Below, in pieces: positions 20,795 through 37,436 of a DNA stretch of 64,000 bases (position 1 is the first letter of the stretch; each line of letters begins with the position of its first letter). The notes under the pieces are model-generated. The model was not told the origin of the DNA. It worked only from the letters and a program-made list of their open reading frames with translations, and searched no databases. The position numbers and the translations under genes are program-made. The stretch spans positions 96,001-160,000 of the IMG/VR virus record IMGVR_UViG_3300026097_001223, one strand, 5' to 3'. Origin of the DNA: a virus.

Positions 20795-21001
20795 ATGTAT
20801 AATTTGTCAGTTCTTGAAGACTACTGCGAACAGTTGCGATCTGATGCAGAACGCAAGGTAGAGTGGACACTGAGCGATCACATCTCGCTGGAACGAGCAG
20901 TGCGTGTTCGCAACAGTTTGTATGCTATAGCAGACGAAATTGAAGAAGTTATTGCAGGTATTCGGGTAGCCGATAAGTATCTGCATGAAGATGACTCGTA
21001 A
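20795..21001 (+). CDS. Hypothetical protein
   Basis: SD GAGGAG; in the operon. Confidence 0.55.
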   Translation: MYNLSVLEDYCEQLRSDAERKVEWTLSDHISLERAVRVRNSLYAIADEIEEVIAGIRVADKYLHEDDS

Positions 21002-21431
21002 CAGAACTGTAGCGGCACTTTTTGCAGCTATAGCAGTTTACTTTTTTGTTTACAGCTTTCAATATCAACTAGGCAGTGCCAGTAGAATGGGCCCTGCCTA
21101 TTTTCCTATTATGACCAGTGTAAGTTTGTTTGCTGTGGCTGTGTGCATATGGCTGTTTGAAAACGATCATGCACCAGCCAGATTTGAATGGGACGTTTTC
21201 TCCGCAGGAGTGCCCATTGGTGCTATTTTGGTATTTGCAGTCAATCTTGAATTTCTCGGTTTTGCAATAACCACAATGTTGGTAACTCTGCTTACTGCTG
21301 TGAGCAAAGAAAACAGAAACCTACCACTCACACTGGGCACAGGCATTTTTCTAGTTGGCCTAGGTTGGGGAGTTTTTGTAAAGTTTCTTGATGTGTATCT
21401 GCCCATGTGGCCTGCTTTTTTATGGAATTAA
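20985..21431 (+). CDS. tctB: Tripartite tricarboxylate transporter small membrane subunit TctB
   Basis: LGSASRMGPAYFP; four TMs; LGFAITT...VFVKFLDVYLPMWP; directly upstream of tctA. Confidence 0.8.
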   Translation: MKMTRNRTVAALFAAIAVYFFVYSFQYQLGSASRMGPAYFPIMTSVSLFAVAVCIWLFENDHAPARFEWDVFSAGVPIGAILVFAVNLEFLGFAITTMLVTLLTAVSKENRNLPLTLGTGIFLVGLGWGVFVKFLDVYLPMWPAFLWN

Positions 21432-22918
21432 TTGACAACTTATATCTAGGATTTGCAACTGCACTCAGTGTTGAAAATATTTTCTACTGTTTTGTGGGTG
21501 TGTTTTTAGGCACCGCTGTGGGTGTTTTGCCTGGCCTCGGACCGCTGGCTGCAATAACCATGCTGTTGCCACTTACATACAGTTTCAATGATCCAAGCAG
21601 TGCTATTATCATGCTTGCTGGCATCTACTATGGGTGTCAGTATGGAGGAAGCACTGCCGCAATTCTAGCAAACATTCCCGGCGAAAGCAGTGCAGTGGTC
21701 ACTGTGGTAGACGGTTATCAAATGACCAAACAGGGTAGAGCTGGCACTGCACTGGTAACAGCGGCACTGAGCAGTTTTTTTGCTGGCACTGTTGCTACAC
21801 TGTTTATTGCTGTTGGTGCACCTGCTCTAGCCGAGGTAGCATTTGCGTTCGGTCCGCCTGACTATTTCAGTCTCATGTTTCTGGGACTTATACTGGCAGT
21901 GGCATTGAGCACAGGCAGTGTGCTAAAAAGTCTAGCAATGGTGATATTTGGTGTACTGATCGGTCTTATTGGCACAGACGTTACCACAGGCGTTGCACGA
22001 TTTGATTGGGGTGTACCAGAACTGTTCGATGGCATTCCATTTGTGGTAATTGCAATGGGACTGTTTGGTTTTGCTGAAATCATGTACAACCTTGAAAATC
22101 CACATGTGCGACAATCACTGAATAATCAACAGCCCACTCTTAGGTTATCTAACAAAGAACTCAGGCGAGCCGCTCCGGCAACAGTTAAAGGCACTGTGGT
22201 CGGTAGCTTTCTTGGACTGTTGCCAGGCAGTGGAGGAATCATTGCTAGCTTTGCTGCCTATGCATTAGAAAAAAGAACCAACAAAAAACATCACAGTGAA
22301 TTTGGTAAAGGCGCAATCGAAGGTGTAGCAGCTCCCGAAAGTGCAAACAATGCTGGCAGTCAAACCAGCTTCATTCCCATGCTGGTATTGGGTATACCTA
22401 CTACTCCTATCATGGCACTGATGATAGCCGCACTCTTAATACACCATGTAGTGCCTGGTCCTCAGATAGTCAGCACCAATCCCGAAGTTTTTTGGGGATT
22501 GATTGCCAGTATGTGGATAGGCAATCTGCTGTTGCTGGTTTTGAATCTGCCGTTGATTGGTATTTGGATACGCATGTTAAATATAAGTTATAATATACTG
22601 TACCCAATTATACTGATATTTGCATGCCTGGGCGTGTATGTGGTCACCAGCAATGTTGTTCATGTATTAATGACCGTTCCTTTTGCAGTGCTGGGTTATC
22701 TGTTTAAAAAATGGGAATGTGAACCCGCGCCATTGATGATGGGATTCATAGTAGGAGCAGCCATGGAAGAACATCTACGCAGGGCCATGACCATCAGCAA
22801 AGGTGATTGGATGGTATTTGTGGAAAGACCTATCAGCGCCACACTGTTGGCTATCGCAACAGCATCTTTGGTTGTTGTGGCAATTTACGTTGCAAGGAGA
22901 GTGCGTGTACATTCGTGA
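21422..22918 (+). CDS. tctA: Tripartite tricarboxylate transporter large subunit TctA
   Basis: GVLPGLG, GIYYGCQYGGS, NIPGE...DGY, G.LPG.GG, APESANNA, LGIPTT; start MELIDN. Confidence 0.93.
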   Translation: MELIDNLYLGFATALSVENIFYCFVGVFLGTAVGVLPGLGPLAAITMLLPLTYSFNDPSSAIIMLAGIYYGCQYGGSTAAILANIPGESSAVVTVVDGYQMTKQGRAGTALVTAALSSFFAGTVATLFIAVGAPALAEVAFAFGPPDYFSLMFLGLILAVALSTGSVLKSLAMVIFGVLIGLIGTDVTTGVARFDWGVPELFDGIPFVVIAMGLFGFAEIMYNLENPHVRQSLNNQQPTLRLSNKELRRAAPATVKGTVVGSFLGLLPGSGGIIASFAAYALEKRTNKKHHSEFGKGAIEGVAAPESANNAGSQTSFIPMLVLGIPTTPIMALMIAALLIHHVVPGPQIVSTNPEVFWGLIASMWIGNLLLLVLNLPLIGIWIRMLNISYNILYPIILIFACLGVYVVTSNVVHVLMTVPFAVLGYLFKKWECEPAPLMMGFIVGAAMEEHLRRAMTISKGDWMVFVERPISATLLAIATASLVVVAIYVARRVRVHS

Positions 22919-24916: not shown

Positions 24917-24944
24917 TTGACAAACAAGTTGTTTAGTGTAAACT
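24917..24944 (+). promoter_or_regulatory. Sigma70-type promoter for the tRNA-riboswitch-btuB operon
   Basis: TTGACA-16-TAAACT, 11 nt before the tRNA. Confidence 0.6.
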
Positions 24945-24955
24945 ATAAACAAGTT

Positions 24956-25032
24956 GGACCTATAGCTCAGTTGGTTAGAGCAGTGAACTCATAATTCATT
25001 GGCCCCTGGTTCGAGTCCAGGTGGGTCCACCA
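24956..25032 (+). tRNA. tRNA with CAU anticodon, most likely tRNA-Ile2 (lysidine type)
   Basis: Cloverleaf GGACCTA/TGGGTCC, loop CTCATAA, TTCGAGT, encoded CCA. C4-G69 and C5-G68 fit Ile2; elongator Met is not excluded. Confidence 0.85.
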
Positions 25033-25080
25033 ACTTATTCATAGCTGCAACTCGTAGTGCATAACTAAAACTAGGTACAG

Positions 25081-25249
25081 TTGAGGTCACCGTGAACATA
25101 GAGATTCATGGGTAATCGGGGAAGCAGTAAATCTGCACTGGCCTTGCAACGGTAGAGCGACACTGGGTCGCGAGTCCGAATGCCGTCCTCAATATTCTGG
25201 TACCGCAGAGCACAAGGTACTGCTCTGACAACTTACAAAAAGGTACACA
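25081..25249 (+). ncRNA. Cobalamin riboswitch, class II (AdoCbl-variant-like), with expression platform
   Basis: P1 TTGAGG/CCTCAA; GGGAA; GCAG-TAAA-TCTGC; ACTG...GCAACGGT; GAGTCCGAATGCC; loop CCTTG (25142-46) complementary to CAAGG (25213-17) in the downstream hairpin loop; lies directly upstream of a BtuB-like gene. Confidence 0.9.
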
Positions 25250-26860
25250 ATGAAAAAATCTATTCTCTCCATTGGCCTATTGGCCGTGTCTCTTTCTACG
25301 TCAGCAGAAACCACTGACATAACAATTTATGTTACTCGAACACCAGTTGAACAAAGCATTGACACCAGGAGTTATACTAGAGCGGACTCTTTAGAACAAC
25401 TGGAACAGTCTCCGGGTATTAATATTGTGCAGAGCGGACCGCGTGGACAAAATACCAGCATGTTTGCACGAGGCACAGAAAGTGACCATACACTGCTTGC
25501 TATCAACGGCATGCCTATCAAAGATCATAGCACTATATCTGGCAGTGATGACATTGGACAACACAGTTTGGCTGGTATTGATCAACTGTTGTTTATACGA
25601 GGTCCAGCCGGTAGCGCCTATGGGCCCAATGCTGTAGGAGGTGCTGTTGACTTTATCAGTCGCGGCACAGGCGACAGTGTATCAGCATCAACTGGTACCT
25701 ATGGTTATAAAAATCTGTATGGCAGTAAACGTTTTGCAAAGGATTCCTTTGCTGGTAGCATTGCTGTTGAAACAGAACGTGCCAATGGCATTGATGTTCA
25801 GGACAACGGTGATCAGGACAGCTACACCAAGAAAAACATAAACCTGTATGGCAGTTGGATGCTGGATCAAGGCGACTTGTACTTGAACTATATCCAGTCA
25901 GACAATAGCAGTGACCTAGATGGATGGAACGAAACCAGTAACTGGCAGTTTGATAACACACAACTTGGCTACGAAACACAAAGTGCTCGGATCGTCTACA
26001 ATCAAGCAAATCATAAACGCATCTATGATACTTCCAGTGTGTATCTCAGCTCTGACGCTAGACTGTTGACTGAAAAAACCTGGAATCAATGGACAGTGAG
26101 CCTAGAGCACAGCAATCATGAGTACGACAGCAACAGTCGAACTGAGCAAGGGGCAGCTGTTGCTTATAATGATCAGTGGCTAAGTGCCGAATTGCGATCC
26201 GATGACACTGAGCTAGGGTCATTTGCCAGCTGGAGACTGGGCGTTTCTCACAGTGGTTTGCGAGCCAGCGTCGCCAACGGATTTAGAACCCCCAGCCTCT
26301 ATGAAGTCTACGGTGATGATTTGTATGTAGAAGAAAACACAGGCCTGCAAGCAGAATATATCACTGCATATGAATTGGGATATAGAAACAGCTGGGTTGA
26401 TACTGCTTTGTTTTTCAACCAAGAAACAGACAGGATCACATACATCACTGATCCAGAGACCTATGTAGGACAGTACACAAACAACATCAAAGACACTGTT
26501 CGTACACACGGAGTTGAAACATCTCTTACCAAAACTGTGGACGATGTTACTGTGAATTACAACTATACCTATACCTGGAGTGATGCAGACAAGCTGAGAC
26601 AGCCAGCTCACATGCACAACCTTGCTCTTTTATATGGCAGTGTAACATATAGTGCACAGTATATAGGATCGCACCTGGACACTGACAGCAACACGTTTAC
26701 TACAGTGAACATGAATGATGTGCTGTTACAGAATTTGTCTTACAAGAAAAAATGGTTCACTGTGACGGTAAATAATATCACTGATCAACAGTATCAACGT
26801 CCAGATGGGTATCAACAATACGGACGCACTATCACATTAAAGGCAGATTATGAATTCTAA
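25250..26860 (+). CDS. btuB: TonB-dependent vitamin B12 receptor, BtuB-like
   Basis: Signal peptide; plug LEQSPGINIVQSGPRGQNTSMFARGTESDHTLLAING; FIRGPAGSAYGPNAVGGAV; NGFRTPSLYE; terminal Phe; riboswitch upstream. Confidence 0.88.
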   Translation: MKKSILSIGLLAVSLSTSAETTDITIYVTRTPVEQSIDTRSYTRADSLEQLEQSPGINIVQSGPRGQNTSMFARGTESDHTLLAINGMPIKDHSTISGSDDIGQHSLAGIDQLLFIRGPAGSAYGPNAVGGAVDFISRGTGDSVSASTGTYGYKNLYGSKRFAKDSFAGSIAVETERANGIDVQDNGDQDSYTKKNINLYGSWMLDQGDLYLNYIQSDNSSDLDGWNETSNWQFDNTQLGYETQSARIVYNQANHKRIYDTSSVYLSSDARLLTEKTWNQWTVSLEHSNHEYDSNSRTEQGAAVAYNDQWLSAELRSDDTELGSFASWRLGVSHSGLRASVANGFRTPSLYEVYGDDLYVEENTGLQAEYITAYELGYRNSWVDTALFFNQETDRITYITDPETYVGQYTNNIKDTVRTHGVETSLTKTVDDVTVNYNYTYTWSDADKLRQPAHMHNLALLYGSVTYSAQYIGSHLDTDSNTFTTVNMNDVLLQNLSYKKKWFTVTVNNITDQQYQRPDGYQQYGRTITLKADYEF

Positions 26861-27338
26861 TATACGACTTTTTTTATTTTTAGCAGGGGCACTGTTTTTA
26901 TTTAGAATTGTGCCGCATCCTCCAAACTTTACACCTGTTATCGCGGCAACTGTGTTTGCCGCGTGTGCAGGACAGCGTTTTTGGGAAACCATGGCTGTGG
27001 TGCTACTGGCAATGTTTGTGAGTGATTTGTTTTTAGGATTACATGCTGGTATGCTGTGGGTATACGCCAGCCTGGTACTTGTGTTCGTGACCTCAAGGTA
27101 TATGAGTTTACTTGCAAGCACACTGATTGGACCTACAGTATTTTTTGTGTCTAGTAATTTTGCAGTATGGTTGAGCGGATGGTATCCTATGACCCTTGAA
27201 GGGTTGATTACTTGTTATGTGGCTGCCATACCATTTTATGCGACCAGCTTGACTGCGACAGTGTTCTATGTTATATTATTTAAAATAATGCAACGTTATC
27301 TCGCAGTAGCTCAGCAGGATAGAGCATCGGACTTCTAA
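26850..27338 (+). CDS. DUF6580-like putative vitamin transporter (ECF S-component-like membrane protein)
   Basis: RIVPHPPNFTPV; SDLFLG; FFVSSNFAVW; CYVAAIPF; about 5-6 TMs; start overlaps the btuB stop. Confidence 0.75.
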   Translation: MNSNIRLFLFLAGALFLFRIVPHPPNFTPVIAATVFAACAGQRFWETMAVVLLAMFVSDLFLGLHAGMLWVYASLVLVFVTSRYMSLLASTLIGPTVFFVSSNFAVWLSGWYPMTLEGLITCYVAAIPFYATSLTATVFYVILFKIMQRYLAVAQQDRASDF

Positions 27339-27376
27339 TCCGAGGGTCGCAGGTTCGAATCCTGCCTGCGAGGCCA
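27300..27376 (+). tRNA. tRNA-Arg(UCU)
   Basis: CTCGCAG/CTGCGAG acceptor; TCGGA-CTTCTAA-TCCGA; D-loop GGATA (A20); encoded CCA. Confidence 0.93.
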
Positions 27377-27417: not shown

Positions 27418-27666
27418 ATGAACTTTTTTATCATAGTACTATTAAGCGGATCGGTCAATGGAGCCGAAGAGTATTTTATTGTAACTGATCCAACATTTGA
27501 AACCATGGAACAGTGCGCAGATCATGGCGTTAACAACCAAAGTTCAGTGTTACAGGGCATGTACAATGCTACGGGTAGAACAAACTGGGACACAATAGCC
27601 TGCGTTGATAAAGAAAGATTACAATACATGTTAAGAAATATAAAACCAGAAGGTATAGATGCATAA
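27418..27666 (+). CDS. Small exported or membrane protein
   Basis: Hydrophobic N-terminus; F.TMEQC motif; TAAGTA at 27394. Confidence 0.55.
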   Translation: MNFFIIVLLSGSVNGAEEYFIVTDPTFETMEQCADHGVNNQSSVLQGMYNATGRTNWDTIACVDKERLQYMLRNIKPEGIDA

Positions 27667-28420
27667 AACTCCAGAAAACATAAGCAATTGGATAAAAACC
27701 TACGCTGAAGATGCTGGACTCGAAACTCTAGTGGTAGGTGTAAGTGGCGGCATTGACAGTGCTGTAGTGAGCACACTGTGTGCAATGACTGGCATGAACA
27801 CAGTGGTAGTGAGCATGCCTATTAGACAAAAGGACGAGCAACATGAACTCAGTGTTGATCATTGTTTGGCATTGCTTGAAAGATTTCCAAATGTTCACTG
27901 GGACACTGTGAATCTCACTGAAGCGTTTGAACAACTAGAAACACTGTTTGCAAACACGCAATACAACAGTGAATTAGCATTTGCCAACAGCCGCAGTAGA
28001 CTGAGAATGATCACACTGTACCAAATTGCAGGAAGCACTCGCGGACTTGTGGTGGGCACTGGCAACAAGGTTGAAGACTTTGGCGTTGGGTTTTACACCA
28101 AGTATGGCGATGGCGGTGTTGACATTTCGCCCATTGCAGACCTAACAAAAACTCAAGTTTGGGAAATGGGAAAAACAATCGGCGTCGATCAACGCATCAT
28201 TGATGCCAAGCCCACCGACGGATTATGGGACGATGGTCGAAACGACCAGGATCAATTAGGCGGATTGACCTATTCACAATTAGAAGAAGCCATGCGCCTA
28301 GCAGATGCAGTGCGAGCAGGTGCTCCTCTAGAAGCGCATGAAAAACGACTGCTAGACAAGTACAACGAGATTCGCAAACCAAACCTGCACAAGATGAATC
28401 CAATTCCTGTATTTAAATGA
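27659..28420 (+). CDS. nadE: NH3-dependent NAD+ synthetase
   Basis: VVGVSGGIDS, NSRSRLRM.TLY, GTGNKVE, GFYTKYGDGGVD.SPIADLTKTQV, PTDGLW. Confidence 0.95.
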   Translation: MHKTPENISNWIKTYAEDAGLETLVVGVSGGIDSAVVSTLCAMTGMNTVVVSMPIRQKDEQHELSVDHCLALLERFPNVHWDTVNLTEAFEQLETLFANTQYNSELAFANSRSRLRMITLYQIAGSTRGLVVGTGNKVEDFGVGFYTKYGDGGVDISPIADLTKTQVWEMGKTIGVDQRIIDAKPTDGLWDDGRNDQDQLGGLTYSQLEEAMRLADAVRAGAPLEAHEKRLLDKYNEIRKPNLHKMNPIPVFK

Positions 28421-30059: not shown

Positions 30060-31091
30060 ATGCAATTATCTGATATACAAAGCTTACAATGTGAAATTAC
30101 ATCCTACTGTAATGCAAGATGTCCGCAGTGCCCTCGTTTTGATCAATATGGTAATCTTTATCCTGGCTTGACATTGCAGCACTGGAATCACCGTGATATT
30201 TTAGCAAACATAGATCTTGATCAACTAACCGGTCTAAACTTGGTAAGGATAGAAGGCGACAAAGGCGATCCTGTGATGCATCCAGATTGTTACGATATTG
30301 TAAAATTCTTTGTGCAAGCTCCTAGTAAGCCACTGGTAAGATTGGTTACAAATGGCAGTATTCAAACAGAAGATTGGTGGCACAATCTAGGTGAACTCAG
30401 TAATGAAAATAACTTTGATGTGATTTTTAGCATTGACGGGTTGGAAGATACAAATCATATCTACCGTATAAACACCGACTACAATAAAATCATGAGAAAT
30501 GCCCGTGCATTCATAAATGCGGGCGGGCAAGCTATTTGGAAGTTTTTGGTCTTTAAGCACAACGAACATCAGCTTGATACAATTACCACTCTTGCACAAA
30601 CCATGGGCTTTGCTGCAATTCAAGTTAGAAAGGCCGACGACTATAGATTTCTTGGCAACAAAAGTTTTGTTGTTTACGATAAAGGAAACCCAGTTGGAGA
30701 AATTGAACCTAGCAATATACCAAGAGAACAACTGTTGTATTTTAAATGGTTTAACCAAGAAAAAGAATTTATTCCTAGACATGAGATAGACAAACATTGT
30801 GTTTGGATGAGTCAAGGTAAAATGAACATTACGTTTCAAGGCTATCTCATGCCATGCTGTATGATGCATCATGTGCTCAATGACGTAGACAAAGATCTGG
30901 TAAAACAGACTGTTGAACTCATGCACAATCCCAATGATTTACTTTTGACAAAACACACCGTCGGTACTATACTGAATAGTAAATTTTATAAATATAATCT
31001 AGAAACTCATCTCCAAAGTACTAACCTGCATCCAATTTGCGAAACCAACTGTAGATCACAGATAAAGGACAAACTAATTGCAACTGACTAA
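30060..31091 (+). CDS. Radical SAM protein with a C-terminal SPASM-like cluster
   Basis: ITSYCNARCPQC, GDP.MHP, TNGS, FSIDGLEDTNHIYR, MPCC. Confidence 0.85.
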   Translation: MQLSDIQSLQCEITSYCNARCPQCPRFDQYGNLYPGLTLQHWNHRDILANIDLDQLTGLNLVRIEGDKGDPVMHPDCYDIVKFFVQAPSKPLVRLVTNGSIQTEDWWHNLGELSNENNFDVIFSIDGLEDTNHIYRINTDYNKIMRNARAFINAGGQAIWKFLVFKHNEHQLDTITTLAQTMGFAAIQVRKADDYRFLGNKSFVVYDKGNPVGEIEPSNIPREQLLYFKWFNQEKEFIPRHEIDKHCVWMSQGKMNITFQGYLMPCCMMHHVLNDVDKDLVKQTVELMHNPNDLLLTKHTVGTILNSKFYKYNLETHLQSTNLHPICETNCRSQIKDKLIATD

Positions 31092-31305
31092 TTTATTAAA
31101 ATGGCTGGCTACTGGGATACTGGTAATAGGCACTATATTTAACGCCCTTGGGTATTACCCACTCGGGCCGTATATTCTAGCAACAGGTGGATATGTATGG
31201 CTAATAGTTGCAATTCGTTGGCGTGACTGGGCACTTATACTAACTAATGCTGTAATGAGTACAACAGGATTAGCACTAACACTGTACACAGTGTATTTTA
31301 CATAG
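31078..31305 (+). CDS. Small 3-TM membrane protein (DUF6552-like)
   Basis: KWLATGILVIG...YPLG...VW...WRDWALILTN. Confidence 0.6.
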   Translation: MQLTNLLKWLATGILVIGTIFNALGYYPLGPYILATGGYVWLIVAIRWRDWALILTNAVMSTTGLALTLYTVYFT

Positions 31306-31317
31306 GAAAAACAACAA

Positions 31318-32382
31318 ATGAAAATATCAAAAATCCCAGGGCTGGGTAGATTTGGTGTATTCATCGACGACGTCGATTTTAAAAATATCACAGATGAAGA
31401 ATGGATGGAAATCGGCAAGATCCATTTAGACAGTCTGGTAACCATAATTCGGAACACAAAGCTGGATCCCGATCGCTACAATGAATTGATGTTAAAGTGG
31501 GGCACTCCCCGAGGCGTAGAAAACTTTAATGTATACAAAAAATATGGTATTAACAGCGGAAAAGAGTTTTACGAAAGATGCTTTGCCGAAGATCCCACTA
31601 TTGACCAAAAGCACCGAGAGTGGGGGAAACATCTTTACAGACTAAGTCATCGTCCTGCTCTTTTACGTGTTTCTGGCAAACTGGACGAAGACGGAAATCC
31701 AATTGGCATGTTTGCTGAGGGCGAGCTGTTGTGGCACAGTAATGAGTCTGGTAACTTAACCTTTACGCCGGGTGTGAGTCTATTAGGCCAGGAAAACATG
31801 ATTGGGTCATCCACTGGGTTTGTAACCACAGTTGATTGGTATGAATCGCAGTCAGATAGTTTCCGCAGCGAGCTGGATGAAATGATTGTGCTTCACAAGT
31901 TTACTCCGGGCAAAGTGAATCCAGGCCTGAGAGAAGAACAAGATGTTCTCATGCGAGCCATGTGTGTAGCAGACGATACTGAAATTCCAATGGTAATGAA
32001 CAGTCCAGGTGGATTCACTGGGTTGCACTACAGTGTAAACACAATGGACCGTATCAAAGGAATGACCAAAGAAGAAAGCGATAAAATATTTGATATCATT
32101 GGCAAGGGTATCTTTACTGAAGAAAATATCTACGACCATTGGTACCAGCACGACGATGACCTGTTGTTGTTTGACAATTCAATAACACTGCATCGAAGAC
32201 TGGGCGATGTGAAAGGACGACTTGCATATCGAATTCAGTACGACTATGAAACTGTGCTTGACGAGCCATGGATGCCATATCGTCAAGAGCCTTATCAAAG
32301 TGAATATATTGAACAGATCACTGAACAGGTTGAATTTATGGGACCAAGAAAGTCAAGGTTCAAACTTCCAGAGATCTCTTGA
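31318..32382 (+). CDS. TauD/TfdA family 2OG-dependent dioxygenase
   Basis: LLWHSNE, GSSTGF, W...DLLLFDNSITLHRR. Confidence 0.85.
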   Translation: MKISKIPGLGRFGVFIDDVDFKNITDEEWMEIGKIHLDSLVTIIRNTKLDPDRYNELMLKWGTPRGVENFNVYKKYGINSGKEFYERCFAEDPTIDQKHREWGKHLYRLSHRPALLRVSGKLDEDGNPIGMFAEGELLWHSNESGNLTFTPGVSLLGQENMIGSSTGFVTTVDWYESQSDSFRSELDEMIVLHKFTPGKVNPGLREEQDVLMRAMCVADDTEIPMVMNSPGGFTGLHYSVNTMDRIKGMTKEESDKIFDIIGKGIFTEENIYDHWYQHDDDLLLFDNSITLHRRLGDVKGRLAYRIQYDYETVLDEPWMPYRQEPYQSEYIEQITEQVEFMGPRKSRFKLPEIS

Positions 32383-33478: not shown

Positions 33479-33562
33479 TGGAAGACACAGGGTTTGTACT
33501 ATTTTGTTTAGGTATTGCATTTTTGTTAGCAACCATGGTCGCTGATACATAGCATAAAAGTT

Positions 33563-33570
33563 TATAAATA
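33563..33570 (+). promoter_or_regulatory. T4-type late promoter driving tmRNA
   Basis: TATAAATA directly upstream of the acceptor piece. Confidence 0.7.
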
Positions 33571-33574
33571 ACAG

Positions 33575-33895
33575 TATTCGTTGAGACGAAGTAATAGGTT
33601 GACGGACCCGGGTTCGACCCCCGGCTGCTCCACCAAAGATACATCTACAACTCCGAGAGAGTAGACCGAAAGGTGAAATAGTAGGAGACGAACGTGGTGT
33701 ATCTTTGATGGGGCAGATTATGGATTCGACGGCGACTGAAAGGCTTCGTGGAGAATCGTCAAGGCAGAAGACGTTAGGATTGGGGGTTCCCGGTCGAAGA
33801 AGCAAACTAAAGTAAACGCAAACGATGAAAACTTTGCACTTGCTGCCTAACTAGGACAGCGGAGAAACAAGGGATGCTTGGCAACAGAAAGAACC
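33575..33895 (+). ncRNA. ssrA: Circularly permuted two-piece tmRNA (alphaproteobacterial type); ends approximate
   Basis: Acceptor piece ends CCCGGGTTCGACCCCCGGCTGCTCCACCA (33635). Intervening segment closed by CAAAGATACATC/GGTGTATCTTTG. Coding piece starts GGGGCAG..GGATTCGAC (33710); G3-U70 pair; tag ANDENFALAA* at 33818-33850; CTTGGCAACAGAA near the end. Confidence 0.93.
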
Positions 33896-33925
33896 TTGAT
33901 TTTTGTGCACCTGCTAAATATGTGC

Positions 33926-34102
33926 ATGATTTATGTATTGGTGTTAATAGGCGTACTCAACTCTACAGCTGAAGTAGAAACTCTTGGCACATTTACCACC
34001 ATGCAAGAATGTTTTCAAGCACGTGAGCAGGTTGTGGAATCCATTGGGAGACCAATCATCAACTATCAAGCAGTGTGTGTATTACATAAACACAGTCAAT
34101 AA
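33926..34102 (+). CDS. Small exported protein
   Basis: ATG 5 nt after TAAATA (33915); hydrophobic N-terminus; TF.TMQECF...YQAVC. Confidence 0.55.
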   Translation: MIYVLVLIGVLNSTAEVETLGTFTTMQECFQAREQVVESIGRPIINYQAVCVLHKHSQ

Positions 34103-35500: not shown

Positions 35501-35857
35501 ATGACTGAAACTCAACTGCTTTTTGCACTATTCTCCTGGCTGGTTTTAACCAGCATTATATACACTATCACAGGTTGGCAACGTGTTGCTGACTGTTATC
35601 GTATGTGGTTTACTCGTGAATACTGGACTGACTATAACATTATAGAGGCTGCAAGCTGGATTGCCAAAGCCATAATTATTATTCCTGGATTGATTTTTGG
35701 AATACAAATTTGGCAATTTTACTTTGTTGCACTGGCTACCAGCATGACACTGATTTGGGCAAGCAACAAAAAGTTGTTACCAACTCTTGTAGGATTCAAC
35801 ACCCTGTGGATTTGGTTGAGTATGATGGTAATTGCGCAGAACATAATCGATGTATAG
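35501..35857 (+). CDS. Small membrane protein
   Basis: Multiple TMs; WTDYNIIEAASWIAKAIIIIPGL. Confidence 0.65.
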   Translation: MTETQLLFALFSWLVLTSIIYTITGWQRVADCYRMWFTREYWTDYNIIEAASWIAKAIIIIPGLIFGIQIWQFYFVALATSMTLIWASNKKLLPTLVGFNTLWIWLSMMVIAQNIIDV

Positions 35858-37436
35858 AAAACCAGTAAAAAATATAGTAGTACTAGGTGGCGGCACTGCT
35901 GGTTGGCTTGCGGCAGGCTATATCAGCAGTCAACTGCCCGATGTCACCATAACCGTTATTGAAAGTGACAAGACAAAAATTGTTGGTGTAGGCGAAACCA
36001 CTGTGCCACAGTTTCGTACACATCTCGAAAAGATGGGTTTACAAGAAAGTCAATGGATGAAAGCCAGCGGCAGTACATTTAAATATGGCGCACGATTTGA
36101 TGGCTGGCGCACAGGATCGGACAGCAGGTGGCATGGGTTCGGTGATTTCCTAGGAGAGAAAAGTATTCTGAAAAGCACTGGCGAAATCAACAAGGCCAGT
36201 GCATCCAAGGAAACAGACCATGCAATTGACTGCGACTACTGGTTTAAATTATTACAGCAAAACAAAATATCAGGATCTCAGTTGAACTGGTTCAACAGCG
36301 AAGCCTACTATCTAATAAAACACAGCCGAGCACACGCTCTAATGGATGGCACACAGGTTGCAAGTCGGTGTCCAGGGTATGCATACAACATCAATGCGTT
36401 CAAAGTAGGGCAAGCAATAAAAGATCTAGTGGCAATGCCAAATGGAGTTGTGCATAAAGTTGCACACATCGATCAAGTTGTTTACGCAGAAGATCAAAGT
36501 GTGGACTATCTCATAGACAGCAATGGACAAAAGCACACTGCTGATTTGTACATAGATTGCACAGGATTCCGTAGGTTGCTTATTGGAGAGCATTCAAAAT
36601 GGATTAGTTTCAGTGATCGGTTAGGATGTCAAAACGCCATCGGCGGCCGAGTGCAATACAACGACGACCAAGAAACTGCTTGTGATCCTGTGTTACACAC
36701 CACAGCAATGAGTGCAGGGTGGAGTTGGCGAGTACCTCTACGAGACGACACTGGATCAGGCTGTGTGTTTGACTCACGGTTTATAGATCCAGATGATGCC
36801 GAACAAGAGCTGATCGATCTCTGGAAAAGCAGAGGCAAAGAAATTGACATTAAAGTGCGTATAAAATACGACAACGGTATATTAGATCGCAGTGCTCACA
36901 GAAACGTTGTTGCAGTTGGTCTTGCTAGTAATTTTTTAGAACCATTGGAAGCAACCAGCATCAGCTTTACCACTCTTGCCAACGAATTAATAGTGCAGCT
37001 GATACAAAAACACAACGGACACTGGGGGCATCGTGACAGCGAAACACTCTCGCGACTGATGCGACGAGAAATTGACTATACTACTGATTTCATTTGGTTA
37101 CACTATGCGTTAACACAACGAAAAGACACAGAATTCTGGCGCCATGTAGGACAGCATCGCGAACAGGCCTTGCAATTGGCATACAGATGGTACCTTGACA
37201 ACGTCGACATACATCGTCGAGAAAAAGATTTCGATCACACACGATATAACAAATTTGATTGGGCACAGATGCTTACTAGCCAGTGTGCCTATCATGACGT
37301 TCCTACTCATCCAGTTGACTCTCGTTTTCTAGAACGGGCACTGATTCAGTATCAATATCGAGATACTGTAGGACAATGGATGTCTCGCACCCTGCCTAGT
37401 CATTGGCAATATCTATTGCATATCAATAACAGCTAA
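35850..37436 (+). CDS. Tryptophan 7-halogenase family flavoprotein
   Basis: VLGGGTAGW, GVGETT, YIDCTGF, GWSWRVPL, FLEPLEATSI. Confidence 0.88.
   Translation: MYRKPVKNIVVLGGGTAGWLAAGYISSQLPDVTITVIESDKTKIVGVGETTVPQFRTHLEKMGLQESQWMKASGSTFKYGARFDGWRTGSDSRWHGFGDFLGEKSILKSTGEINKASASKETDHAIDCDYWFKLLQQNKISGSQLNWFNSEAYYLIKHSRAHALMDGTQVASRCPGYAYNINAFKVGQAIKDLVAMPNGVVHKVAHIDQVVYAEDQSVDYLIDSNGQKHTADLYIDCTGFRRLLIGEHSKWISFSDRLGCQNAIGGRVQYNDDQETACDPVLHTTAMSAGWSWRVPLRDDTGSGCVFDSRFIDPDDAEQELIDLWKSRGKEIDIKVRIKYDNGILDRSAHRNVVAVGLASNFLEPLEATSISFTTLANELIVQLIQKHNGHWGHRDSETLSRLMRREIDYTTDFIWLHYALTQRKDTEFWRHVGQHREQALQLAYRWYLDNVDIHRREKDFDHTRYNKFDWAQMLTSQCAYHDVPTHPVDSRFLERALIQYQYRDTVGQWMSRTLPSHWQYLLHINNS

Follow-up and report, generated by a model that had tools for sequence, protein, structure and literature searches.

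Vitamin B12 (cobalamin) limits much of the ocean plankton, and riboswitches are rare in phages. The B12 uptake systems closest to the locus described here are the outer-membrane receptor BtuB of Escherichia coli with its btuB leader, the solitary transporter BtuM of Thiobacillus denitrificans, and the energy-coupling factor (ECF) transporter ECF-CbrT, a vitamin B12 transporter solved as PDB 6FNP (PMC5997447). In phages, a survey of pelagimyophages (Zaragoza-Solas et al. 2020; PMC7029224) lists a “TonB-dependent vitamin B12 receptor” among auxiliary metabolic genes as a table entry only (supplementary file 10), reports finding no riboswitches and mentions no partner at the inner membrane. Our literature search returned no account of a phage B12 importer under riboswitch control or of a DUF6580 partner, no literature on DUF6580 and no report of a phage riboswitch gating a nutrient importer. 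The DNA analysed here (the window) is a stretch of 64,000 nucleotides (nt) corresponding to bases 96001-160000 of a single virus record of 182,329 bp (IMGVR_UViG_3300026097_001223), whose guanine plus cytosine (GC) content is 42%. Positions 24917-27376 of the window carry a leader RNA, a BtuB-like receptor gene and a gene for a DUF6580 protein, flanked by two tRNAs. We read this segment of a large marine T4-like phage, with a probability of about 0.7, as a riboswitch-controlled phage operon for corrinoid (vitamin B12) uptake that would provide a two-membrane route under a B12-sensing leader. Its elements are the following:

24917..24944, + strand: sigma70-like promoter, TTGACA-16-TAAACT (10/12 in a consensus scan)
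24956..25032, + strand: tRNA with anticodon CAT, Ile2-like, CCA encoded (Rfam tRNA 71.2 bits; labelled Met(cat) by ARAGORN)
25067..25205, + strand: cobalamin-clan aptamer (RF00174, 29.2 bits, below the gathering score)
25206..25227, + strand: P13 hairpin (7-bp stem, loop CAAGG)
25240..25252, + strand: Shine-Dalgarno (SD) sequence AAGG 25240-43, GGUAC 25242-46 and start codon AUG 25250 (read from the sequence)
25250..26860, + strand: BtuB-like TonB-dependent receptor, 536 amino acids (Plug domain; BtuB the closest solved relative)
26850..27338, + strand: DUF6580 inner-membrane protein, 162 amino acids (PF20221, E 2.9e-32)
27300..27376, + strand: tRNA-Arg(TCT) (Rfam/ARAGORN; overlaps the last 39 nt of the DUF6580 open reading frame)

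The receptor of 536 amino acids has a signal peptide, a TonB-box-like DITIYVT, a plug (Pfam Plug domain, E 1.3e-12), a barrel and a C-terminal F. The DITIYVT motif, which we take to resemble the TonB box of BtuB, stands directly after the signal peptide, and confidence of the structural model is low over residues 1-37. A phmmer search of PDB sequences gave BtuB as the best relative (E 8e-19 vs 1e-7 for Cir and FepA), and the best NCBIfam family is TIGR01779, at 123.8 bits against a cut-off of 599.7 (PRK10641, 91 vs 836). The AlphaFold2 (AF2) model has a mean predicted local distance difference test score (pLDDT) of 77; its top 12 Foldseek matches are all E. coli BtuB (template modelling score, TM, 0.82; E 4e-29), and siderophore, heme and copper receptors rank behind. 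A first-pass annotation of this DNA, made from the letters alone, had called a compact BtuB-like TonB receptor at this position, a call borne out by sequence, NCBIfam and fold; the grouping with siderophore or heme receptors that would have spoken against it was not observed in the sequence and fold searches, which BtuB tops. The gene is under purifying selection (ratio of nonsynonymous to synonymous rates, dN/dS, 0.14). In a FastTree phylogeny the receptor is nested, with 99-100% local support, in a clade of 93 rows of which 85 are viral; the method readily joins long branches, and the cellular sequences were sampled through their DUF6580 neighbours.

The downstream gene product matches PF20221 with 112.6 bits (gathering score 27). 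Its AF2 model (pLDDT 89.8) finds only ECF S-components in Foldseek, with cobalamin-bound BtuM first (TM 0.66), and in VIA-align BtuM has a Z-score of 13.2 over 149 of the 162 residues, compared with 9.4-11.9 for 21 other S-component entries. The sole PDB sequence match of the DUF6580 family profile is the weak one to 6fnp_A (E 0.008), a chain which, judged by its length of 182 amino acids, corresponds to the S-component CbrT. An RxxPHPPNFTP motif is invariant in the family and present in the window protein, and the gene is under purifying selection (dN/dS 0.07). The DUF6580 protein is thus a candidate solitary B12 carrier, BtuM-like in its predicted action and outside the BtuM family. The first-pass annotation had likewise proposed a BtuM-like solitary S-component, a proposal with which the top structural match to BtuM and the sole profile match to CbrT agree, the transport role being a prediction.

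The leader preceding the receptor was described at first as a full class-II cobalamin riboswitch. No cobalamin riboswitch was reported by an Rfam scan of the whole window at gathering thresholds, and a larger multi-locus Rfam scan also missed the leaders. The local scan yielded a match below threshold to the RF00174 Cobalamin model at 25067-25205 (29.2 bits, E 1.3e-5), so that the covariance scan proposed with that description gave support only beneath the gathering scores. These are 31.5 bits for RF00174 and 36.5 bits for RF01689 (AdoCbl-II), both members of Rfam clan CL00101; the homologous leader of lineage L004 matches RF01689 at 24.9 bits. The aptamer folds into these helices:

25074-78/25200-04, + strand: P1a
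25080-86/25187-93, + strand: P1b
25090-25111, + strand: P2
25117-19/25183-85, + strand: P3
25124-36, + strand: P4
25139-48, + strand: P5/L5
25150-52/25176-78, + strand: P6
25157-71, + strand: P6 hairpin

For an independent covariance model, R1, five viral AdoCbl-II aptamers served as input and the window was left out. R1 scores the window leader at 16.9 bits, and its sub-threshold matches across the window and about 1.6 Mb of loci are only leaders of the window's own group (16.9-20.1 bits). In an alignment with 15 canonical aptamers, the RNA of the window shows the common core GGGGAA, ACUG-CCUUGCAACGG and AGUCCGAAUGCCG as well as the helices. It departs from canonical AdoCbl-II RNAs by an added P2 hairpin, as in RF00174, by a 5-bp hairpin at the P6 position and by a shortened P4. 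The aptamer is best classified, from its sequence, as a divergent cobalamin riboswitch of hybrid form, in which additional P2 and P6 hairpins accompany an AdoCbl-II-like core; this form would account for its missing both Rfam thresholds. The AdoCbl-II-like core of the initial description therefore stands, and a clean class-II assignment does not. Exact core-pattern scans found no viral record and one metagenome record, which indicates that leaders of the window type are rare; nhmmer with the leader alignment proved too narrow.

Conservation of this RNA could be followed in two comparison lineages, L003 and L004 (the L004 receptor is 67% identical to that of the window). Four leader sequences from the three lineages are 91% identical, and between these lineages the synonymous sites of the adjacent gene are saturated (proportion of synonymous differences, pS, 0.78). 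The 48-pair structure, including 36 aptamer-helix pairs, is paired in 192 of 192 cells, compared with 33-40% in slid controls, and the stem substitutions are all compensatory (3 pairs) or wobble. Such identity despite saturated synonymous sites, together with the compensatory stem changes, argues for a functional RNA.

The same module was found in other viruses and in bacteria. Relatives in IMG/VR number 145 for the receptor and 107 for DUF6580, many of them on contigs 100-330 kb long; a search of viral contigs with one protein alone gave no matches. Viral contigs have the receptor and DUF6580 genes in either order, and also one without the other. Canonical AdoCbl-II riboswitches (58-98 bits) lie just upstream of the viral module in about 25 distinct contigs, and other viral groups have no riboswitch match with R1. 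Several viral modules adjoin homologs of this phage's capsid gene or sit in tRNA clusters. Variants of the layout were observed. In L058 (4885-4979), L146 and L168 (5442-5534) the AdoCbl-II riboswitch separates DUF6580 from the receptor, so that only the receptor would be regulated. L100 and L101 have the same gene order beside capsid genes and carry, about 500 nt upstream of the receptor (2704-2750), a glutamine riboswitch (45-54 bits); no cobalamin riboswitch was found there with R1. A small DUF6552 protein is encoded directly 3′ of the BtuB-like receptor in L007 (7755-7985), a 221-kb and probably cellular contig with no riboswitch upstream of its receptor homolog, and a weak DUF6552 match recurs near the module of the phage lineage L004 (6031-6258).

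Among bacteria, DUF6580 is present in the genomes of at least 589 species, and the copies closest to that of the phage belong to SAR86, SAR116, Pelagibacteraceae and marine Gammaproteobacteria. A TonB receptor lies within 4 kb in 35 of 80 cellular DUF6580 loci, mostly directly upstream as in the window. All nine receptor-adjacent DUF6580 loci scanned carry a canonical Cobalamin riboswitch (RF00174, 63-115 bits) 5′ of the receptor, as do L010 and L011, with metH and PduO nearby. Two loci from metagenome-assembled genomes have the order metH, riboswitch, receptor, PduO adenosyltransferase and DUF6580, the last two in either order. A single-cell contig of Pelagibacteraceae (SAR11; L250, 121-4447) shows a B12-binding radical SAM gene, an AdoCbl-II riboswitch, the receptor and DUF6580 in succession inside a glycosyltransferase island; some SAR11 cells thus seem to have a TonB-type B12 route. 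Because of this riboswitch-receptor-DUF6580 context in bacterial genomes, DUF6580 can be assigned, as a genomic prediction, to the B12 regulon. Side matches of AdoCbl-II type (37-46 bits on R1) were seen upstream of DUF6580 in two groups of the candidate phyla radiation, Saccharibacteria and Levybacteria (L202 2986-3069, L192 3320-3393), with no TonB receptor within the 4-kb flanks of these loci. A riboswitch 5′ of DUF6580 with no receptor gene in these flanks fits DUF6580 being itself a B12 carrier.

Downstream of the aptamer, the loop of P13 (CAAGG, 25213-17) is complementary to CCUUG in L5 (25142-46), forming a candidate regulatory kissing loop. Pairing of L5 with the loop of a downstream hairpin is how the regulatory kissing loop is arranged in known cobalamin riboswitches. 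The 7-bp P13 stem is conserved with one wobble change, and the five kissing-loop pairs are invariant across the three lineages, other loop bases being variable. The palindrome GGUACC at 25199-204 has two alternative partners: GGUAC 25074-78, which extends P1, or the SD-adjacent GGUAC 25242-46. The two full conformers are near-isoenergetic (-47.5 kcal/mol with P1 extended and the SD free, vs -46.6 kcal/mol). Three GGUAC/GUACC elements are conserved in the three lineages and a fourth copy, in the loop, is not. Two other arrangements were considered and ruled out: an intrinsic terminator after the aptamer, as no U-tract follows P13, and use of the loop AAGG as the ribosome site for an alternative start, as there is no start codon in 25218-25249 and an in-frame UGA lies at 25226-28.

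By analogy with known systems we favour a translational OFF switch, and the operon would work as follows. The conserved early-type promoter would transcribe tRNA-Ile2, the B12-sensing leader, the receptor, DUF6580 and tRNA-Arg as one unit. Without B12, GUACC 25200-04 would pair with GGUAC 25074-78, leaving P1 extended and the ribosome-binding site free. When B12 is bound, the L5-L13 kissing loop (CCUUG:CAAGG) would dock P13 and release GUACC from P1; the released GUACC would then pair with the SD-adjacent GGUAC 25242-46 and occlude the ribosome-binding site. The minimal BtuB-type receptor would insert in the host outer membrane and be energised by host TonB-ExbBD, and DUF6580, an S-component-like six-helix protein, would carry B12 across the inner membrane in the manner of BtuM, with no need of an ECF module. 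The infected cell would raise its B12 import only when B12 is low, and the imported vitamin would feed host enzymes needed for phage production (MetH, NrdJ, B12-radical-SAM proteins). This is in essence the phage-encoded, B12-sensing import across both membranes put forward in the first-pass annotation; homology, structure and context support it, and ligand, transport, switch polarity and benefit are its predicted parts.

Several observations weigh against this reading. The receptor is far below the BtuB equivalog cut-off (124 vs 600 bits). No invariant or near-invariant cysteine exists in 35 DUF6580 sequences, a residue conserved in BtuM as a cobalt ligand. Genes for a B12-dependent enzyme, for TonB and for an adenosyltransferase are missing from the contig. 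The aptamer does not reach the gathering score of either clan model, and its P4 loop is shorter than the conserved GUGNAAU-type loop, so that ligand binding is not assured. Covariation comes from three lineages only and is suggestive, 14 of 500 shuffles reaching the observed score; the kissing-loop and GGUAC pairings never vary and hence gain no support from it. The SD is 13 nt beyond P13, whereas the canonical viral relatives embed the start codon in a hairpin, and thermodynamic folding leaves the SD mostly free in both constrained states. Finally, that B12 turns the switch OFF is an assumption made by analogy.

Taken together, the points on the leader suggest an alternative in which the B12 uptake pair is real and the leader a decayed relic that no longer senses B12, expression from the early promoter being constitutive as in related phages without a switch. 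Besides the sub-threshold aptamer, the shortened P4 loop and an SD that is not embedded in P13, it can draw on the absence of an R1 riboswitch match in the nearest receptor relatives in the tree (L019/L021) and in other groups; in L019 a tRNA abuts the pair. We find it unlikely: a relic would drift, but this leader remains about 90% conserved next to saturated synonymous sites, has changed in its stems by compensatory substitutions and has retained the kissing-loop complementarity.

A second alternative is that the switch is real and has the opposite polarity (B12 would stabilise P1 and free the ribosome-binding site) or acts through mRNA decay or Rho instead of translation initiation. The P1-extended conformer with a free SD is indeed slightly the more stable (-47.5 vs -46.6 kcal/mol), no simple SD-sequestering hairpin is seen and an intrinsic terminator is absent. 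To our knowledge, however, ligand binding lowers expression wherever a riboswitch in front of a btuB-type uptake gene has been characterised; it is hard to see why an importer should be switched on by the substance it brings in, and in the canonical viral relatives the start codon is part of a hairpin that immediately follows the aptamer. We therefore give this possibility a low probability, a shade below that of a relic leader, and retain a B12-repressed leader as the preferred reading.

The gene content of the 182-kb contig, which represents about 52% of the genome (CheckV estimate), concerns the use of the imported vitamin. The rest of the record had been proposed as a place to look for nrdJ or metH; neither was found in the 182 kb, nor was a B12-binding domain, TonB_C, a PduO-type adenosyltransferase, EcfT, a true ABC ATPase or CobS_N, and the phage ribonucleotide reductase is the class Ia NrdAB, not NrdJ. 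Energy coupling and B12-dependent enzymes would accordingly have to be supplied by the host or be encoded in the half of the genome not covered by the contig, and the absence of an ECF module and ABC ATPase fits a solitary action of DUF6580. The lack of a B12-dependent phage enzyme on the contig and the distance of the receptor from the BtuB equivalog threshold could also speak for a receptor with mainly a surface role (susceptibility to other phages or colicins) or with another substrate, accompanied by DUF6580 as an unrelated membrane partner; BtuB-type proteins are established phage and colicin receptors. This seems improbable, since the receptor is coupled here to a cobalamin-clan leader and in viral relatives and bacteria to canonical B12 riboswitches, its partner matches B12 S-components, and siderophore and heme receptors score far lower than BtuB. 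Nothing in the analysis pointed to the surface remodelling that had been noted at first as a second possible role.

The viral setting of the uptake operon, read from the window at the outset, is confirmed by a T4-type Gp23 capsid gene on the same record (330 bits) and by baseplate and virion proteins and a phage endonuclease encoded within the window. The order tRNA, leader, receptor, DUF6580/tRNA-Arg, 82-amino-acid open reading frame and NAD synthase is identical in the window's group (three lineages), and three independent assemblies, from different samples, share the junctions TctA...tRNA-module-NadE-tRNAs. Because of these shared junctions and synteny and the unremarkable GC of the B12 locus (41-46% vs 42% for the genome), a chimera with host DNA, against which the first-pass annotation had cautioned, is very unlikely. 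Both genes do have cellular homologs in marine bacteria, but a misassembly joining host to phage DNA has next to no probability with phage genes on both sides of the locus within one contig and the receptor inside a largely viral clade. The operon can thus be regarded, as far as sequence comparison tells, as a set of auxiliary metabolic genes in a bona fide phage genome, maintained by selection.

All elements of the operon are co-oriented on the + strand and have the coordinates listed in the first-pass annotation; the two protein genes overlap by 11 nt. The promoter is present as called, and L003 and L004 retain both its hexamers (-35 and -10) amid diverged flanks; promoter-like matches in the region are no more frequent than in shuffles. 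The best E. coli matches of the CAT tRNA are annotated as tRNA-Ile (81.8% over the full length), which agrees with its designation as Ile2, and the tRNA-Arg called at 27300-27376 has the anticodon TCT. The stop codon of DUF6580 (TAA, 27336-38) lies in the anticodon loop of tRNA-Arg and overlaps its anticodon (27334-36), with the same overlap in L003 and L004. Processing of the tRNA 5′ end would therefore remove the stop codon of the transporter mRNA.

Other host-like genes surround the module. The membrane subunits TctB (E 1e-17) and TctA (E 2e-149) of a tripartite tricarboxylate transporter are encoded just upstream (20985-22918), likewise in L003, with no recognisable TctC beside them. The open reading frame of 82 amino acids and the NAD synthase gene (NadE, PF02540, E 5e-48) lie 3′ of the module at 27418-28420 in all three lineages. 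With five tRNAs, transporters and NadE, the region resembles an island of host-like metabolic genes. A permuted two-piece transfer-messenger RNA (tmRNA) with the tag ANDENFALAA is found at 33543-33941 (RF04321, 97 bits; alpha_tmRNA, 60 bits); two-piece tmRNAs are known from marine T4-like phages (PMC9004378). The segments 30060-32382 and 35850-37436 encode a radical SAM/SPASM protein without a B12-binding domain, a TauD-like dioxygenase and a tryptophan-halogenase-like protein (phrog_2928, E 1e-89).

If the proposed role is right, viruses would have a new way of reshaping vitamin traffic, through a widespread phage module by which infected cells take up more B12. The data give DUF6580 a testable function, that of an inner-membrane B12 carrier, and the compact receptor of 536 amino acids and the hybrid aptamer offer small natural variants suited to structural and ligand-selectivity work. 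A wider proposal goes beyond the operon itself: DUF6580 might form a new family of solitary S-components, independent of both BtuCDF and an ECF module, and serve SAR11, SAR86, SAR116 and many other ocean bacteria as a major B12 importer that has gone unrecognised. Marine T4-like phages would combine it with a minimal BtuB into a self-sufficient, ligand-gated route across both membranes and redirect B12 flux in infected cells by means of a riboswitch of their own. We hold the arguments for and against this proposal to be about evenly balanced.

Compared with the systems named at the beginning, the operon combines known parts in a different arrangement. CbrT of Lactobacillus delbrueckii binds cobalamin and cobinamide, and the DUF6580 profile aligns with it over the region of the P-N-x-x-P motif; CbrT needs EcfAA'T (PMC5997447), whereas the phage contig has no ECF module. 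BtuM (PDB 8OVV, 8C7P), an S-component-like cobalamin transporter that acts alone, resembles DUF6580 in its six-helix fold and small size, in having no ECF module nearby and in its Gram-negative setting alongside an outer-membrane receptor. DUF6580 is only about 15% identical to BtuM, belongs to another Pfam family, lacks the invariant cysteine and has its own invariant motif R-x-x-P-H-P-P-N-F-T-P. The pelagimyophage receptor (PMC7029224) is likewise a BtuB-type gene in marine T4-like phages; the present phage has a GC content of 42% and a different leader. The E. coli system (BtuB, PDB 1NQE-1NQH and 2GSK; leader, RF00174) shares a plug-and-barrel TonB receptor with a cobalamin-clan leader directly upstream, and probable control of translation by way of a kissing loop that L5 forms with a hairpin further downstream, as predicted here. 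Relative to BtuB the phage receptor is about 21% identical, shorter, trimmed in its loops and below the TIGR01779 cut-off; its gene sits behind a tRNA and has DUF6580 instead of BtuCDF as partner. Also close are the AdoCbl-II/AdoCbl-variant riboswitches (RF01689) of marine bacteria and related viral contigs. The window RNA adds to them P2 and the 5-bp hairpin at the P6 position, shortens P4 and scores 16.9-24.9 bits as compared with 58-98 for the canonical viral copies, and it has the same core and stands before the same downstream genes.

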